Origin: Myxococcota bacterium
GTDB taxonomy: Bacteria; Myxococcota_A; UBA9160; JAFDDA01
Direction of reading: 5' to 3'
DNA: 64,000 nt
NCBI GenBank assembly: GCA_965228475.1
Contig: OZ245817.1
Location: forward strand, 1,472,001 to 1,536,000
The notes under the pieces were generated by a model. That model saw only the letters and a program-made list of their open reading frames with translations, was not told the origin of the DNA and did no database searches. A program made the translations under genes and the position numbers. Shown here piece after piece: positions 17,852 to 62,851 of the stretch (positions are counted from its first letter, which is position 1; each line of letters opens with the position of its first letter).

Positions 17852-18472
17852 CTATAGCGAGCGCCGTGCCCCTCGCCGATGCAGCGACAAGCCGACCAGG
17901 CCGATGCCCAGGAGTGTTGCCGTCCCCGGCTCGGGAACGACGGCGATCTCCCAGGTGTAGTCCACCAACGCGAACGAGTTGTTCGTGTTGCCGCTGAAGC
18001 CGCCGATCGTCACGCCGTAGAAACCGGTCGCATCGATCGGCAGATCCGCGACGAAGAGGCTCACGTCGGCGAAGGGCACGTCCTGGAGTTCGAAGCGGAT
18101 GCTCGAGACCGAGGTGACCGTCGCGTCGTAGCGGAACAGCTCGACTCGGATCCGGTTGAGGATCGCGTCGCCATCGACCTTGGCCGCGGAGAGCGTGATC
18201 GAATCGATCTCGAGCCCGGCTCCCAGCGACAACAACGCCGTGTCGAAGCTGCTCGGGATCGTGCCGCCCCACTGCGCCGTGCCGGTGATCACGTTCGTTC
18301 CGGCCCCGAGCGGCAGTGCGCTGCCGGGTGAGTGGGAGCCCGGCGCGAAGGTGCCGGGCAGGGACCCGTCTACGGCTTCGTCGTAGACGATGGGCGCAGC
18401 GCTCGCGGCGGCCGGCATGAACGTGGCGAGAACCGCAGCCGCCAAGGCGGCCCCTGCGAAGATCCTACGCAT
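17852..18472 (-). CDS. PEP-CTERM surface protein
   Basis: Signal peptide MRRIFAGAALAAAVLATFMPAAASA; C-terminal VPEPGTATLLGIGLVGLSLHRR. It is the 3' part of a long ORF-track frame. Confidence 0.88.
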   Translation of the reverse strand: MRRIFAGAALAAAVLATFMPAAASAAPIVYDEAVDGSLPGTFAPGSHSPGSALPLGAGTNVITGTAQWGGTIPSSFDTALLSLGAGLEIDSITLSAAKVDGDAILNRIRVELFRYDATVTSVSSIRFELQDVPFADVSLFVADLPIDATGFYGVTIGGFSGNTNNSFALVDYTWEIAVVPEPGTATLLGIGLVGLSLHRRGARRSL

Positions 18473-56554: not shown

Positions 56555-58621
56555 TCAGTTCGTTCCGTTGTCCTCTTCCGCCGGCACGAGTTCGAGGAAG
56601 AGGCCCGTGAAGCCCTGATCCCGGACCGACTCCACCGGGCCGAGGCCGAAGCCGAGCAGCGTCGGGAGATCGAAGGCGGCGATGGCGTTGGTGAGCTTCG
56701 GGAGGATCTCCTGCTCGAGGAAGCTGCCGTTGGCGATGAAGAGATCCACCAGGGCCGTCGGCGGAATCCACTGGGCGAGCGGCGTGGTCAGGTAGGCCTC
56801 GATGGTGGTGAAGCTCGCATCGGGGGCGCACGTCGGCGTCCCGCTGCACGTCTCGATGTCGAACTCGAGCTTCGTGTCGGGGACGAAGCCCGGCGGATAG
56901 ATCACGCCGCCGGCGTACGGGTCGTCGATCACGGCCGAGATCCCGCCGTTCAGGCGGAGGATGCCGCGCACCAGAAGCGCCGGGCCGCGCCGGAGCTCCA
57001 TCACCATTCCGGCCAGCTGCAGCGCGGATTGAGAGGTCAGCGGCCCGGCGCTGCCGGTCAGGATCGGCGCGGCGGTCGGGGAGTAGCGAATGGACATCGC
57101 GTCCGTGGGGGCGATGTCGTTCTGGAGCTCCGGCGGGATCGTCCCGAAGAGGCAGGCGCCCGTCAGGGTGGGGGAGCCCGTCGGCGTCCCATCGTCGCAG
57201 CTCGGGTCTTCCGTGATCTCCCCGGAGAGGCCGCCGGTCTCCACGAAGCCTGCGAAGAGCTGGTTCATGAAGCTGTCCGAGAGGCCGATTCCGAGGTCGA
57301 AGGGCAGGGCGCCCGGCGAGAGTGCTCCCCAGACCGGCGGGCTCACCGGAACGCGGAAGCGCTCGGGGGGCAGCGCCGGGCACGCACCGTCGAAGAGCTG
57401 CCCCTGGGCGCAGAGCGTGTCGTTCGCCACCGCAGCGGTGTCCACCATGTAGCGGATGCCGTCGACGTCCTCGTCGATCGCGACGATCGAGGAGTTCAGG
57501 TCCATCATGAGCGTGGGTTCGATGGCCTGGGCGATGCCGAGCGCGTTGATCTCGGCTTCGACCGCGTCCGCGATCACCGAGCCGCCGCCCGGCGGGTTCA
57601 GGCTGTCGGCGACGAGGGTGAGCGCGCTCGCCTCGAAGTCCGCGCCGAGCGTGCCGACCAGATAGGCCTCGAAGGTGCTGTAGGCGCAGGGTCCCAGCGT
57701 GAAGTCGACGGTGAAGGTGCCGAAGGCGACGGCGAGGTTCGTCTGGGTGACGTCGATCTGGGGGCTCGCCGGGGTCTGATCGAGCTGCGCATCGACCATG
57801 AGCGGGTCGATGGTGACGGTGCCTTCGCAGTAGATGAGCGGCGCGCCCGGCGGCGTGAACGGGTCGTGCAGCTTGAAGTCGACCTCGAGGGCCGGCAGCG
57901 CGACGCCGAGATGGGTCACGCCGGCGCTCGGCGTGATGTCCACGCTCGGTTCTCCGTGGGTGACGGTCTCCACGAACACGTCGATCGGAAGGCCGCCTTC
58001 CGTGACGCAATCCTGGGTCGGGTCGATCTCGGGGAAGCAAAGACCGCCGAAGCTCGTGCCCTCGAGGGCCGTGAGATCGAGGCTCCCCGTCACGGTGGGC
58101 GCGACGAAGTCGGCGATGGCGTCGAGACCCGGCTGGGCCAGGCGGAGCGCGATCCCGTTCTCCGTCGATGCGTTCCACTGTTCGCCCGGATCCTCGCCGA
58201 CGACGAGGGTGACGTGGGCGCGGCGCTGGAAGGCGTTGTTGGTCGAGTCCGTCAGTACCGCGATCACCGTGTTCAGGTGGGGCTCCGCGTCGGCGCCCGG
58301 GACCCGGTAGTCGATCGGGACGGCCGCGCTGAAGGTGACCGGGTTGGTGTCGTGGACGGTCGCCTGGATCGGGCTGCCGAGAATTCCGTTCACGTAGAGC
58401 TCGACGACCGCGTCGGCGGCGGCGAGGCCCTCGTAGCGGAACTTCCCGGTCACCAGGACGTCGTCGCTCGGGCTTCCGGGGGTCGGCGAGGAAAGCTCGT
58501 GGAAGCTGCCCATGGCCGGCGAGTCGAACTTCAGCGGCACGTTCGTGCTGCACGCTCCCATTCCGGAGTAGAGGCCTGCCAGGACGGTCAGGGCGGCGAA
58601 CGCCCAGCGCTGCACGCTCAT
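56555..58621 (-). CDS. Large lipoprotein: Ig-like domain plus putative BPI/LBP (TULIP) fold
   Basis: AAGGAG RBS; lipobox-like MGAC; GIALRLAQPGLDAI and LGIGLSDSFMNQLF segments. Confidence 0.7.
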   Translation of the reverse strand: MSVQRWAFAALTVLAGLYSGMGACSTNVPLKFDSPAMGSFHELSSPTPGSPSDDVLVTGKFRYEGLAAADAVVELYVNGILGSPIQATVHDTNPVTFSAAVPIDYRVPGADAEPHLNTVIAVLTDSTNNAFQRRAHVTLVVGEDPGEQWNASTENGIALRLAQPGLDAIADFVAPTVTGSLDLTALEGTSFGGLCFPEIDPTQDCVTEGGLPIDVFVETVTHGEPSVDITPSAGVTHLGVALPALEVDFKLHDPFTPPGAPLIYCEGTVTIDPLMVDAQLDQTPASPQIDVTQTNLAVAFGTFTVDFTLGPCAYSTFEAYLVGTLGADFEASALTLVADSLNPPGGGSVIADAVEAEINALGIAQAIEPTLMMDLNSSIVAIDEDVDGIRYMVDTAAVANDTLCAQGQLFDGACPALPPERFRVPVSPPVWGALSPGALPFDLGIGLSDSFMNQLFAGFVETGGLSGEITEDPSCDDGTPTGSPTLTGACLFGTIPPELQNDIAPTDAMSIRYSPTAAPILTGSAGPLTSQSALQLAGMVMELRRGPALLVRGILRLNGGISAVIDDPYAGGVIYPPGFVPDTKLEFDIETCSGTPTCAPDASFTTIEAYLTTPLAQWIPPTALVDLFIANGSFLEQEILPKLTNAIAAFDLPTLLGFGLGPVESVRDQGFTGLFLELVPAEEDNGTN

Positions 58622-58634
58622 GTCGGACTCCTTC

Positions 58635-58762
58635 GATATCATTAGATATCTTTTATTGATCTCTTGAGTGATATAAAACTTATATAAATCAATTATTTAA
58701 AGATCGAAAAGAACCACTGGAAACAATCTATCACAGATTTTGATTGCAAACGTTATCAATTG
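58635..58762. promoter_or_regulatory. AT-rich divergent control region with an IHF-consensus site
   Basis: 30 G+C in 120 nt (58641-58760); AATCAAttatTTA at 58687-58699 matches WATCAA-N4-TTR; several short palindromes. Confidence 0.7.
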
Positions 58763-58809
58763 AGCGTAGATCGGTTTTCGACGGGCTTCGCCCCGGGGAG
58801 GAGGATTCG

Positions 58810-60822
58810 ATGCCGACTGGGCTTCGTTCACTGCCGATTGGGCTTCGTTCGCTGCGGACTGGGCTTCGTTCGCGGATCTTGTTGTTGGCGCTGGCGTTCG
58901 GCGCGACCGGTTACAACTGTGGCGCGCCGCCGTCCATCTACATCTCTTCGCCGACCAGCGGCGCGTTCCACATCCTCTCGGCCTACGGCCCGAACATCAC
59001 CGTCGACGGCCAGCTGAACTGCCTGCCGACGACGGGCGTCGAGGTGCGCCTGTGGTGGGACGAGGTCGGCCCCGACTCCCAGGCCGTCCTGGCGAGCGTC
59101 GCGCCCTCGACGCTCTTCACGGCCACGATGCCGGTGCCCACCGACGGGAAGGTGCTCCACACGATCATCGCCGAGGTCCGCTACGGGCCGGCGCTCTCGC
59201 TCTCGCGGCGTCACAGCGTGGTCGTGCACGTCGTCGACTACACGTCGAACGTCGGGACCGGCGACGACTTCACCACCCTGATCCGCCTGACGGACCTCGG
59301 CCTCGACGAGATGGAGCCCGCGCTCTCCGCCCAGGCCTCGGCGGCCTTCGACCTGAACGCGACCCTCCAGTGGCAGGACCTGCTGAACGGGACGGAGCCC
59401 TGCTTCGTCAACGGCCCGTTCGGCAGCTGCTTCGGACGCCTCCACCAGGCGTTGGTCACCAACGCTTCGATCGGCAGCGTCGGCGTCGAGCTCGACGCCG
59501 TTTCGGGCGCCGTCGCGACGGACATCGCGCTTTCGGACATCGACCTGAACGCCCAGCTCCAAGGGAAGCTGGCCGGCTTCGGCTTCACGTGCGACGCCGC
59601 CCTCAACACGGACGAGGCGGACCTCGACGTGGAGATGGACCTCGAGAAGGACCCGGCGGATCCGAGCCGGCTGATCGTGGTGCAGAACGGGAACGTGGGG
59701 GTCGGCCCGCTGAACTTCCTCGCCCTGGACCTGAACTGCTCCGGCGTGATCGGCGGCGTCCTCGGCAACCTGTTCGACACCGTCACGGACTCTCCCGAGA
59801 CGCTCGAGCGGGTCCAGACCGGCCTCGCAGACATGATCAACTCGAACCTCGTGCTCGCGGACGGCTTTCAGGATGCCCTCGACGAGATCGCGCTCGCAGA
59901 CGCGATCGGAACGTCGCTCGGCATGGACCTGGGCGTCACGCTCGGCGGCGATCCGCTGATCAACGGCACGGGGATCTCGGTTGTGGCCGGAATCGACCCC
60001 CAGCCGACCACCACCGAGTGCAGCCCCGGCAACCCGCTCGCCGGCAACGGCTGGGCCTGCCAGGCGCTCCCCGACACGGTCTTCCTCGCGAACAGCGGCG
60101 GCAACTTCTGGGGATGGGACGACACGGCGCCGAGCGGTCCGAGCTACGACGTCGGCGTCGGGATCGAAGATACGGCGCTGAACCTGCTGCTCCGGGCGGT
60201 CGCCGAGCAGGGCAAGCTCTCGCGGCGGGTCACGTCCCTCCCGGGAATCCCCGGGAACCTCACCTGGGACGCCCTGATCAGTCCGGCGGGCTGCGCCGCC
60301 ATCGGGATGCCCTGTTCGGACCGGGTCGACATCAAGATCTCGCCCGTCGTGGCGCCCTTGGTCCGGGGCAACGCCGGAATCGGCGGTTCGATCACCGACC
60401 TCGTGTTCCAGCTGAACCTCGAGTTCGCGACGCCCGGGTTCAACGCGTCCTACGACGTCCCGCGGCTGACGATGCTCCTGACCGTCGAAGCGGGGCTCGA
60501 CCTCGTCGTTGCCAACGACGAGCTGGGCTTCGAGTTCAAGCTCTGCGACCCCGAGCCGTGCACGCCGAACTTCGACCTGAACGCGATCTACACGTTCTTT
60601 CCGAACGTCTCGATCGGTCCGCGTCTGATCGACGGCGTCTTCATCGGCCAGCCCGACATCCAGGACGCCGTGACGGATCTGCTCACCACGAGCCTCGCGA
60701 GCGCCATCCAGGGCTTCCCGTTGCCGGAGTTCCAGGGGCAGACGCTCACGCCCATCACGATCGAGCGCGAGGGAACGCTCTCGACCACGACGGGATACAT
60801 GACGGTGTTCGGGGACCTCTAG
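58810..60822 (+). CDS. Large lipoprotein paralog: Ig-like domain plus putative BPI/LBP (TULIP) fold
   Basis: GGAGGAGG RBS; signal peptide ending GYNC; TLIRLTDLGLDEM and VGVGIEDTALNLLL segments are collinear with the divergent gene. Confidence 0.7.
   Translation: MPTGLRSLPIGLRSLRTGLRSRILLLALAFGATGYNCGAPPSIYISSPTSGAFHILSAYGPNITVDGQLNCLPTTGVEVRLWWDEVGPDSQAVLASVAPSTLFTATMPVPTDGKVLHTIIAEVRYGPALSLSRRHSVVVHVVDYTSNVGTGDDFTTLIRLTDLGLDEMEPALSAQASAAFDLNATLQWQDLLNGTEPCFVNGPFGSCFGRLHQALVTNASIGSVGVELDAVSGAVATDIALSDIDLNAQLQGKLAGFGFTCDAALNTDEADLDVEMDLEKDPADPSRLIVVQNGNVGVGPLNFLALDLNCSGVIGGVLGNLFDTVTDSPETLERVQTGLADMINSNLVLADGFQDALDEIALADAIGTSLGMDLGVTLGGDPLINGTGISVVAGIDPQPTTTECSPGNPLAGNGWACQALPDTVFLANSGGNFWGWDDTAPSGPSYDVGVGIEDTALNLLLRAVAEQGKLSRRVTSLPGIPGNLTWDALISPAGCAAIGMPCSDRVDIKISPVVAPLVRGNAGIGGSITDLVFQLNLEFATPGFNASYDVPRLTMLLTVEAGLDLVVANDELGFEFKLCDPEPCTPNFDLNAIYTFFPNVSIGPRLIDGVFIGQPDIQDAVTDLLTTSLASAIQGFPLPEFQGQTLTPITIEREGTLSTTTGYMTVFGDL
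58813..58875 (+). repeat. Three 21-bp tandem repeats in the signal-peptide n-region
   Basis: ccgactgggcttcgttcactg / ccgattgggcttcgttcgctg / cggactgggcttcgttcgcgg. Confidence 0.9.
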
Positions 60823-60849
60823 GTCTCGCTAGAGGGAAGGGGAAGAGAG

Positions 60850-61959
60850 ATGGATGTTGTCGTTCGAAGAAGGGTCGTCGCGCAATGGGGGTTCCTCGCG
60901 CTGCTCCTGGCGTCGTTCCTGCTGCCGGGCTCGGCCCGCGCCTACACGATCGGAGCGGCCGAGGGCACGAACACCGCGACGCAGCTCGAGCTCCGGCTCA
61001 CGCTCTGGGACGACGGGAACCCGCTGCAGGCCGTCTTCCACGAGACGGGCTGTGAGCCGGACGAAGATTGCCCGTTCTCCCTGACGCTCGGGGTCGCGCC
61101 GGTCTTCGTGTTCGGGCCGGGCGGAAGCTTCGGGACCTTCGACTTCTCCGCGACCCTGCGGCACGAAGGCTCGGCGGAGTCCGTGCAGTTCTCGGGCTAC
61201 GGGCACGAACTCGGCACGCACCCGCTCGACGTAGCGGGTCCCTTCTGGCAGCAGGTGAGCTTTCACCTCGCCGAAGGGCCGGGCGAGTCCTACCTGACGG
61301 TCTCGGCCACGGTCCCCGAGCCGCGCTCCCTCGCGCTGCTCGGTCTCGCGGGGATCGTCTTCGTGCTTCTGCGCCATGCGTTCCCCCCGCGTCGCCGGAG
61401 GGGGTTCCGGGGGGCTCTCCAGCCGGCGAGGCCGGGTGCCACCGTCGCCGCGTGCTTCCTCGCGGCGGCGGTCGGCCTCCCCGGCACCGCCCGGGCCTTC
61501 ACGGTCGACGTCGTTTCGCTGACGAACGAGCCGGGTCTGTTCGCAGCCGTCGTCCGGGTGCTCCACGACGGAAACGCGGACCCGCTCGAGGCGCGCATCT
61601 CCGGCTGCGTCCCGGACGTCCCGAGTGATGCGTGCCCCTTCACCCTGAACCTCCAGGTCTGGCCCGTGCCGATCCTGCCCGGCGTCTTCGACTTCCAGGT
61701 GATCGGCAACCTCGCGCACGTCGACTCGGCCTTCGCGCCCGCCTTCGAGCTGCACAACCACGATCCCCAGATCGGCACCGAGATCGTGCTCGGCCAGGAC
61801 GAGGTGTGGCAGACCTGGAGCCTCGGCTGGGACGGCGCCACGCGATTCGAGCTCGTCGCGACGGCGGCCGTCCCCGAGCCGCAGCTCGCGGTCCTGACCG
61901 CGGCCCTCGCTGCGACCTTCGGGTTGCGCCGCAGGCGCAGGGAGCCGCGTCCGGTATGA
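60850..61959 (+). CDS. Double PEP-CTERM protein (two signal-domain-VPEP units in one ORF)
   Basis: Signal ...PGSARA, domain 1, VPEP-TM-RRRR, second signal ...PGTARA, domain 2, VPEP-TM-RRRRR. Confidence 0.8.
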   Translation: MDVVVRRRVVAQWGFLALLLASFLLPGSARAYTIGAAEGTNTATQLELRLTLWDDGNPLQAVFHETGCEPDEDCPFSLTLGVAPVFVFGPGGSFGTFDFSATLRHEGSAESVQFSGYGHELGTHPLDVAGPFWQQVSFHLAEGPGESYLTVSATVPEPRSLALLGLAGIVFVLLRHAFPPRRRRGFRGALQPARPGATVAACFLAAAVGLPGTARAFTVDVVSLTNEPGLFAAVVRVLHDGNADPLEARISGCVPDVPSDACPFTLNLQVWPVPILPGVFDFQVIGNLAHVDSAFAPAFELHNHDPQIGTEIVLGQDEVWQTWSLGWDGATRFELVATAAVPEPQLAVLTAALAATFGLRRRRREPRPV

Positions 61960-62008
61960 TCGAGTCGCTCGCCCGGAGGCGGGTCGCCGCCCACCTGCCG
62001 GAGCGAGC

Positions 62009-62851
62009 ATGCACTACGGGGTCTCGATCTTTCCCACCGACTACGCGATGGCGCTCCCGGAGCTGGCCGTCGCCGCCGAGGCCCGGGGCCTCGAATCGCT
62101 CTGGGTCGCCGAGCACTCCCACATCCCGTCCTCCCGCAAGAGCGCGTTTCCCGGCGGCGGCGAGCTGCCGAAGATGTACTACGACACGCTCGACCCGTTC
62201 GTCGCCCTCGCGGCGGCGGCCTCGGTGACGACCCGGATCAAGCTCGCCACCGGCATCTGCCTCGTCGTCCAGCGCGACCCGATCCACACCGCGAAGGAGG
62301 TCGCCTCCCTCGACCAGCTCTCCCGCGGCCGCTTCCTGTTCGGCGTCGGCGCCGGCTGGAACGAAGAGGAGATGGCCGCCCACGGCACGCGCGATTTCAA
62401 GCGCCGCTTCAAGCTGATGCGGGAGCGCATCGAGGCGATGAAGGCGCTGTGGTCGGAGAAGGAGGCGCGCTACCGCGGCGAGTTCGTCGAGCTCGAGCCC
62501 TCGTTCCAGTGGCCGAAGCCCGTCCAAGAGCCCCACCCGCCGATCCACGTGGGCGGCGTCTTCCCGGGCGGCGCGAAGCGCGCGGTGCGCTACGGCCAGG
62601 GCTGGATCCCGATCGGCGGGAAGGGAGACGGTCTCGAGGAAGCGATCCCCGCCTTCCACGCCATGGCCGAGGAAGCCGGTCGGGAGCGTCTCGAAGTCAC
62701 GGCCTACGGCATCGTGCCGACCGAGAAGGTCGTGGATCGCTATGCGCGGGCCGGAGTCGATCGGATCGTCTTCGCGCTGCCGCCCGCGCCGCGGGAGGAG
62801 CTCCTGCCGCACCTCGACCGCTGCGCGGCATTCGTGAAGGAGTCGAAGTAG
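62009..62851 (+). CDS. LLM-class (F420-dependent-type) oxidoreductase
   Basis: SLWVAEHSHIP, DPFVAL, AKEVASLDQLSRGRF and PKPVQEPHPPI. Confidence 0.9.
   Translation: MHYGVSIFPTDYAMALPELAVAAEARGLESLWVAEHSHIPSSRKSAFPGGGELPKMYYDTLDPFVALAAAASVTTRIKLATGICLVVQRDPIHTAKEVASLDQLSRGRFLFGVGAGWNEEEMAAHGTRDFKRRFKLMRERIEAMKALWSEKEARYRGEFVELEPSFQWPKPVQEPHPPIHVGGVFPGGAKRAVRYGQGWIPIGGKGDGLEEAIPAFHAMAEEAGRERLEVTAYGIVPTEKVVDRYARAGVDRIVFALPPAPREELLPHLDRCAAFVKESK

Follow-up and report, generated by a model that had tools for sequence, protein, structure and literature searches.

A Myxococcota reading frame that joins two PEP-CTERM proteins across an internal signal-peptide-like segment

A 64,000-nucleotide stretch of the genome of a marine Myxococcota bacterium (contig OZ245817.1 of assembly GCA_965228475.1, positions 1,472,001 to 1,536,000, forward strand; this whole stretch is called the window below) contained a single open reading frame (ORF) at 60850-61959 (+), running from ATG 60850 to TGA 61957-61959 (369 codons) without an in-frame stop and carrying two export and two PEP-CTERM sorting signals. 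From the N-terminus it encoded a signal peptide and a domain followed by VPEP + helix + RRRR, then a signal-peptide-like segment and a second domain, paralogous to the first, followed by VPEP + helix + RRRRR. That the in-frame fusion itself is real we regard as close to certain. Judged from sequence, the ORF is, with the balance somewhat in favour, a fusion of two tandem paralogous genes for exosortase cargo, the product of which is probably cut back into two proteins.

Two export and two sorting signals in one frame

A purine-rich Shine-Dalgarno-like run (gagggaaggggaagagag, 60832-60849, read from the sequence) stood immediately 5′ of the ATG; this run and all parts of the ORF are on the + strand. 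Signal peptide 1 (residues 1–31, 60850-60942) comprised an n-region with RRR, an h-region and a c-region GSARA with a putative cleavage site at its end. Its hydrophobic window (residues 9–30) had a mean Kyte-Doolittle hydropathy (KD) of 2.01 and satisfied a crude signal-peptide rule, namely an uncharged stretch of ≥12 residues, mean hydropathy ≥1.6, a small-x-small end and no following Pro. Domain 1 (residues 32–154, 60943-61311) was acidic (K+R 1.6%, D+E 13.0%) and predicted to be all-beta, with two Cys (GC..DC). PEP-CTERM signal 1 (residues 155–184, 61312-61401) consisted of VPEP, a helix (hydrophobic window residues 158–179, KD 2.70) and RH..RRRR, and was internal, 193 residues before the stop. 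It led into an Arg-rich loop (residues 175–196) in which 7 of 22 residues were Arg and none was acidic, and the remainder of this loop together with the internal signal-peptide-like segment, ...ATVAACFLAAAVGLPGTARA, occupied residues 185–216 (61402-61497; hydrophobic window residues 195–214, KD 2.04). Domain 2 (residues 217–340, 61498-61869; K+R 2.4%, D+E 12.9%) was followed by PEP-CTERM signal 2 (residues 341–369, 61870-61956), which consisted of VPEP, a helix (residues 345–360, KD 1.73), RRRRR and EPRPV and had a tail of 5 aa before the stop. A first-pass annotation made from the letters alone had put the two VPEP motifs at 61312 and 61870 and the end of ...VGLPGTARA at 61497, and all three positions were recovered.

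The two halves of the protein were homologous (51/152 identical, 34%, E 9e-15), as had been proposed for the second domain at first pass, and the alignment began within both signal-peptide regions. Residues 15–34 (FLALLLASFLLPGSARAYTI) and 203–220 (FLAAAVGLPGTARAFTV) gave a local alignment score of 46, compared with 22.7 ± 4.7 for shuffled sequences, of which 1 in 2000 reached 46. This homology of the signal-peptide regions indicated that the internal hydrophobic segment arose as a copy of signal peptide 1 and has since diverged. By our own crude rule the segment (residues 185–216) also had the sequence features of a signal peptidase I substrate: a basic n-region, an uncharged h-region ATVAACFLAAAVGL, and Ala at -3 and -1 (TARA|F). 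The earlier claim that the Arg-rich loop of the first sorting signal runs into a signal-peptide-like segment was thereby strengthened, the segment being paralogous to the N-terminal signal peptide and the junction recurring elsewhere (see below).

Both PEP-CTERM signals had the tripartite design (motif, hydrophobic helix, basic cluster) that is among the PEP-CTERM criteria listed in the accessible text of bioRxiv 10.1101/2023.06.07.544157. The same text lists closeness to the C-terminus, which applied to signal 2 (5 residues to the stop) and not to signal 1 (193 residues). With the PEP-CTERM model TIGR02595 (cut-off 16) the whole protein reached 23.5 bits, and the halves taken separately 19.9 (half 1) and 16.7 (half 2); in a six-frame scan of the genome signal 1 had 23.7 bits and signal 2 18.8 bits. 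PF07589 scored 24.7 bits on the whole protein (cut-off 20.7), with the halves alone below the cut-off at 18.1 and 8.4. No Pfam or NCBIfam domain was found in domain 1. An AlphaFold2 model built on a 3-row alignment had a mean pLDDT of 36.5, too low for use, with strands seen in domain 1 only at low confidence, and the ESM Atlas returned no usable match for residues 217–340.

The 90%-identity cluster of the protein had three members, each of 369 aa, encoded on the 5.0-Mb contig, on a 90,650-bp contig with one substitution and on a 1,757-bp contig with nine (P0004). Contigs of four public sequencing runs were compared over 60700-62100. Those of X1 and X2 were identical over this interval; they may be source data and so not independent. 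X4, a marine metagenome, spanned the whole interval with 25 substitutions and no indel, and X5 covered 60814-61266 with 8 differences. The absence of a stop, on which the first-pass annotation had relied, held in the three protein records and in the contigs of X1, X2 and X4, all without indels. The junction does carry runs of 6 C, 5 G and 6 G, and a stop or frameshift might lie concealed in these C/G homopolymer runs at 61380-61420; we consider this very improbable, as three protein records and the contigs of three runs, from at least three studies, agree without indels, one of them with 25 substitutions, and the +2 frame is open to 61628, so that one indel would leave no pair of well-formed genes.

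Within the ORF, X4 differed from the window at 21 positions (11 synonymous and 10 non-synonymous), giving a pN/pS of 0.33; by part the ratio was 0.37 for unit 1, 0.24 for unit 2 and 0.45 for the junction, all from small counts. Rebuilding the ORF with the X4 differences gave exactly the nine residue changes of P0004. No RNA datasets were seen among the public sequencing runs with the sequence.

Searches for homologues of the domains returned only the gene itself in its own genome and only three short matches (E 0.004-0.009) in 40 relatives. A word-indexed search of 5.8 billion clusters, which covered forms of ≥202 aa, returned only P0004 (98% identical). Among 1.84 billion representatives searched with HMMER, P0004 was found together with a weak match to the Ig-like repeat protein P0005 (E 8.6e-5), which was set aside as uninformative. 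None was found in a scan of genome contigs, and three metagenome loci proved spurious, each being a glutamate-dehydrogenase-like gene that shared the word VLHDGNAD.

The junction in this genome and in relatives

The genome, a single contig of 5,006,157 bp (C1), encoded two exosortases, with PF09721 scores of 186.4 and 170.2 bits and TIGR02602 scores of 165.9 and 126.3 bits (cut-off 105.55); none of the exosortase subtype models reached its cut-off for either enzyme. Six-frame scanning with TIGR02595 gave 83 matches at E ≤ 10, 65 of them over the cut-off, and seven of the 83 had >23 residues before the next in-frame stop. Four of these seven were rejected (≤13 bits, and the motif missing or a stop inside). 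The other three were true VPEP + helix + Arg signals and lay in the window ORF, at C1:1689878-1691428 (-) and at C1:4197019-4198845 (-). With these three double ORFs excluded, all other true [VI]PEP matches were within 23 residues of the stop. An independent regular expression found 81 frames with PEP-CTERM signals, including the two other internal ones; it missed the internal signal of the window ORF because of the Arg and His within that signal. A signal-peptide-like start was present in 76 of the 81 frames by the crude rule.

The first sister ORF (P0006, 492 aa; locus L008:2879-4357) had a first unit made up of a signal peptide, a domain and VPEP-helix-RRRR; its second unit comprised a signal-like segment (..APSANA|Q), an unrelated domain of 262 aa and VPEP-helix-RRRRR. 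The second (P0007, sister ORF C, 507 aa; locus L009:4020-5543) lay within a run of PEP-CTERM genes. Near-length relatives of P0006 and P0007 were not found in the word-indexed protein database. In each of the three ORFs a basic cluster came after the internal sorting signal, then a hydrophobic stretch with an AxA-type site, and each closed with a second PEP-CTERM signal. The junctions read ...RRRRGFRGALQPARPG ATVAACFLAAAVGLPGTARA|FTVD... in the window ORF, ...LLTRRRR IPTAFGLAFASAALWVAPSANA|QVTL... in P0006 and ...GGSLRRKSRR GALVAVLAGSFLAAPATAA|TIFE... in P0007. All 3 of 3 junctions passed the signal-peptide rule, compared with 62/6001 (1.0%) of the RR sites sampled from the six-frame translation. 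When ordinary PEP-CTERM genes were read on beyond their stops, 9/243 cases passed, several of them being the signal peptide of the next gene. One further match to the junction model, at C1:4387605, was rejected as the membrane N-terminus of a sensor kinase with no sorting signal. Elsewhere in the window, at 17873-17938 (-) (C1:1489873-1489938), an ordinary PEP-CTERM signal of 22.1 bits ended an 855-aa frame, 6 residues from the stop.

Relatives were surveyed with queries built from the junction itself, which were insensitive, so that the counts are a lower bound. For the phylum, a profile of the three junctions was run on 401 sampled genomes (best 15 candidates per genome; 6 examined); for the order, a four-row profile was run on 193 genomes (best 32 candidates per genome; best 150 of 413 rows). 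At least eight clear junction ORFs were present in at least six of the 193 genomes of the order, across four coded families. Five of them were beyond this genome, in five genomes of the order. The ORF in G008 (L027:955-2334, -, 460 aa) had the junction ...TPIPEPGTLALLGLGVVALASRRRRR GLLAIAVGAALLMGAAAPALA|TPVE... and a C-terminal VPEP, with a TIGR02595 score of 25.1 bits at residues 233–256, and that in G497 (L087) was also double, with a terminal IPEP. In the giant proteins of G433 (L086), G469 (L089) and G453 (L090) the junction was followed by 944, 1430 and 696 residues, respectively, with no terminal PEP-CTERM. All five passed from the PEP-CTERM signal by way of RRRR(R) to the hydrophobic stretch and kept an AxA-type site directly after it. 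The search for an internal PEP-CTERM signal followed by a signal peptide, proposed at first pass, had thus added two ORFs in this genome and at least five in relatives.

Among the matches listed in the order survey there were seven new long-coverage candidates free of stops, four of which were true junctions. From the phylum survey, L023 and L025 were rejected for stops and L032 and L047 as terminal signals with tails, and a weaker candidate (L033, G038) lay in a giant repeat protein; from the order survey, L088, L091 and L092 were terminal signals with tails. TIGR02595 scanning of 12 relatives gave 408 matches.

These data bear on the reading that the fusion is a recent, neutral or slightly harmful stop-loss accident that is heading to decay and does nothing as a unit. 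In favour of it, both domains are orphans, and the fused form of this ORF is seen at strain level only. The pN/pS of 0.33, with synonymous changes in both units and the junction, the divergent copy without indels, and the three such ORFs in this genome and five in relatives, with compact and topologically correct junctions, argue against it, and we hold it to be improbable.

Predicted topology and processing

The topology considered here draws on the positive-inside rule, on the alternation of stop-transfer and re-initiation as successive helices reach the Sec translocon, and on the -3/-1 rule of signal peptidase I. The domains contained 1.6-3.8% K+R and 10-15% D+E, and the loops between the sorting helices and the signal-like helices 32-83% K+R and no acidic residue. 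This distribution of charge fits a predicted four-helix topology with both domains outside.

The Sec translocon would thread the chain as a precursor with four helices. Signal peptide 1 would insert in-to-out, placing domain 1 outside; the helix of PEP-CTERM signal 1 would run out-to-in as a stop-transfer sequence and leave the Arg-rich loop in the cytoplasm; the internal signal-like helix would run in-to-out and restart export, placing domain 2 outside; and the helix of PEP-CTERM signal 2 would run out-to-in, with the RRRRR tail inside. Signal peptidase I would cut after SARA31 and TARA216, and exosortase at both VPEP motifs. The expected products are two small acidic surface proteins, and a helix-loop-helix hairpin of ~60 residues that would remain in the membrane.

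A less likely course, to which we still give some weight, is that the fusion is real and signal peptidase leaves the internal helix uncut. Unit 2 would then be tethered by the hairpin after the cut at the first VPEP, or the product would be an uncut four-helix membrane protein, or it would be degraded. Cleavage is a prediction from sequence; the TARA c-region has Arg at -2 and follows a short h-region, and the uncut form of HVO_0405, an archaeal fusion described below, was reported to be unstable in the accessible parts of PMC7157517. On the other side, the N-terminal signal of the same protein has a like c-region (..SARA), also with Arg at -2; an AxA-type site is kept right after the hydrophobic stretch in three junctions here and five in relatives; and in ORF C the internal segment has a genuine N-terminal signal peptide as its homologue (see below).

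The first-pass annotation had seen no convincing internal start. No in-frame ATG or TTG indeed occurred between the first VPEP and the ARA site, but an in-frame GTG (61363-61365, Val172), the sole one near the junction, sat within the first sorting helix, with GGGGA 8 nt upstream. Unit 2 might be made mainly from this codon, with a 45-residue signal peptide (MLLRHAFPPRRRRGF...TARA), leaving the fused chain minor or incidental. Both sister ORFs likewise have in-frame GTG or TTG codons within the first sorting helix. The fused chain is nevertheless necessarily made whenever unit 1 is made, because translation from ATG 60850 meets no stop. GTG codons and G-rich strings are common at this G+C content, and a consensus scan, weak in a G+C-rich genome, found 0 promoter-like sites in 58400-62300. 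We judge internal initiation to be an unlikely main source of unit 2.

Several points weigh against a fusion that is cut back into two proteins. Cleavage by signal peptidase and by exosortase is itself predicted from the sequence, and the signal-peptide rule is crude and puts cleavage sites too early. The internal h-region is short. The loop of the window ORF is long (22 aa), compared with 5-6 aa in the two sister ORFs, and the junctions of the relatives are compact too. Signal 2 has the weakest helix (KD 1.73) and, as half 2 alone, is barely above the TIGR02595 cut-off (16.7 vs 16). The pN/pS is based on just 21 changes, and the fused state was found only in copies ≥98% identical; since the domains had no detectable relatives beyond three near-identical copies, a split ancestor is not demonstrable for the window ORF.

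More broadly, we put forward only tentatively that exosortase bacteria repeatedly build secreted polyproteins by means of a reusable "stop-and-restart" cassette, made up of a PEP-CTERM helix, a signal peptide and the short Arg loop between them. Signal peptidase I and exosortase would then cut one Sec-inserted chain into two (elsewhere more) separately sorted proteins, and paralogous partners would be co-delivered in equal amounts; the three cassettes in this genome would have been made independently. That equal amounts of the two paralogous domains matter, e.g. for a heterodimer, is speculation.

Origin, precedents and neighbourhood

For sister ORF C, a split ancestor could be shown. Residues 277–492 of P0007 aligned with residues 12–215 of a stand-alone 235-aa PEP-CTERM gene (L014:1477-2181, -) in a genome of the same order (G027), at 32% identity (E 2e-15). 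The N-terminal signal of the G027 protein, MRMRMLGIGAIGLLLAAPAPA|IEIFSDDDF, faced the internal ...SRRGALVAVLAGSFLAAPATA|ATIFEDQDF of P0007, and residue 12 lies inside the signal peptide of the G027 protein. This alignment indicated that the internal segment of P0007 was a former N-terminal signal peptide.

The most likely origin of the fused window ORF would be loss of the stop and of the intergenic stretch between closely packed tandem PEP-CTERM genes, and such a fusion may be tolerated, perhaps favoured, because every targeting signal remains usable. Tandem PEP-CTERM genes were tightly packed in the genome, providing raw material for fusion. Downstream of ORF C, a PEP-CTERM gene (L009:3217-4023) overlapped it by 4 nt, and a further one lay upstream (L009:5651-6538). 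At C1:3242454-3243326 (+; 3242454/3243258), two ordinary PEP-CTERM genes were adjacent, with the second signal peptide in the same frame and 14 codons past the first stop, so that one stop-codon change would create another fused chain. Two tandem near-identical PEP-CTERM genes at C1:2698251-2700110 (+) had an identical 25-residue sorting signal and signal peptide; they represent a recent tandem duplication, from which a fusion such as that in the window could develop.

Internal signals that restart translocation after a helix ending in the cytoplasm, and are then cut by signal peptidase to give two proteins, occur in the FbcH cytochrome b/c1 precursor of Bradyrhizobium japonicum and in flavivirus polyproteins. 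Unlike the window ORF, these have no exosortase-type sorting signal, and their products are proteins of a respiratory complex or a virion.

Canonical cargo of the PEP-CTERM/exosortase (EpsH, Xrt) system (Haft et al. 2006, PMC1569441; TIGR02595, PF07589) shares with the window ORF the N-terminal signal peptide, VPEP + helix + Arg cluster, many copies per genome and the presence of exosortases. The window ORF differs in that one of its complete signals lies 193 residues before the end and precedes another signal peptide, another domain and another sorting signal. A term search of the text of PMC1569441 found no mention of internal or second PEP-CTERM signals. The first-pass statement that PEP-CTERM is normally single and terminal was right, but internal tripartite signals made by fusion had already been published for an archaeal homologue and proposed for MYXO-CTERM, according to the accessible parts of PMC7157517, PMC6098224 and PMC11980579, on which the next paragraph also draws.

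HVO_0405 of Haloferax volcanii arose by a strain-specific fusion that joined a substrate of ArtA (archaeosortase A) with the product of a NifU-domain gene; the two cleavage fragments were detected (PMC6098224, PMC7157517). As in the window ORF, a normally C-terminal sorting signal came to lie mid-chain through gene fusion, and ArtA is a homologue of exosortase (PMC7157517, PMC6098224); from what is reported there, a sorting enzyme of the superfamily can cut a mid-chain signal. In contrast to the window ORF, HVO_0405 is an archaeal Tat substrate with a PGF motif and a downstream NifU-domain part, is a single strain-specific fusion, and in those parts of the sources has no second signal peptide or sorting signal reported. 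In MXAN_5598 of Myxococcus xanthus, an internal MYXO-CTERM was attributed to a two-gene fusion, and the N-terminal part was proposed to be processed and anchored (PMC11980579). It differs from the window ORF in its Cys-containing MYXO-CTERM, its myxosortase (CAAX-protease type) and its downstream outer-membrane beta-barrel with an OmpA domain, and its processing is proposed only (PMC11980579).

NF033207, "midcut-by-XrtH protein", is, by name alone, a curated family with a mid-protein PEP-CTERM-like cut site, and the name suggests that curators are aware of mid-protein exosortase sites. The window ORF scored 14.1 bits on this model against a cut-off of 45 (E 0.037, residues 147–234, across the junction) and is not assigned to the family. 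No XrtH model was among the matches of the two exosortases (E ≤ 1e-4), and no paper using the name "midcut-by-XrtH" was found. Nor was a paper found on a chain with a signal peptide after a PEP-CTERM signal, or with two PEP-CTERM modules, in a search that left subscription journals mostly outside. Neither the parts nor the principle that fusion can place a sorting tag inside a chain is new; the searched literature contained no report of the stop-and-restart junction that brings in a second export signal, or of the recurrence of this junction.

Exosortase sorting is known almost solely from genomics. For archaeosortase, the large detectable downstream fragment of the natural substrate HVO_0405 made proteolysis demonstrable, as far as the accessible text of PMC6098224 and PMC7157517 tells. 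The fused ORFs offer a like handle for bacterial exosortase, and also a test of the use of an internal signal peptide after a stop-transfer helix in bacteria. Should both cuts take place, a single protein in current gene calls and annotation would correspond to two in the cell, and the order PEP-CTERM signal + Arg cluster + signal peptide would be a simple criterion by which to recognize polyproteins; should they not, the ORFs show how readily tandem surface-protein genes fuse without being purged.

G001, a genome of the same genus that is 89% complete, was too distant for synteny, its closest counterpart of the oxidoreductase gene downstream of the fused gene being 50% identical. Upstream, a 692-aa ORF (58744-60822, +) with a hydrophobic N-terminal region ended 27 nt before the fused gene. 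It had no Pfam or NCBIfam family match, was not found in same-genus or same-family genomes, and may be co-transcribed with the fused gene. A terminator scan gave one terminator-like site, far upstream. The downstream gene (62009-62851, +) encoded an F420-dependent LLM-class oxidoreductase (TIGR03619, 263.7 bits, cut-off 166.9), which is probably unrelated to the surface-protein gene.

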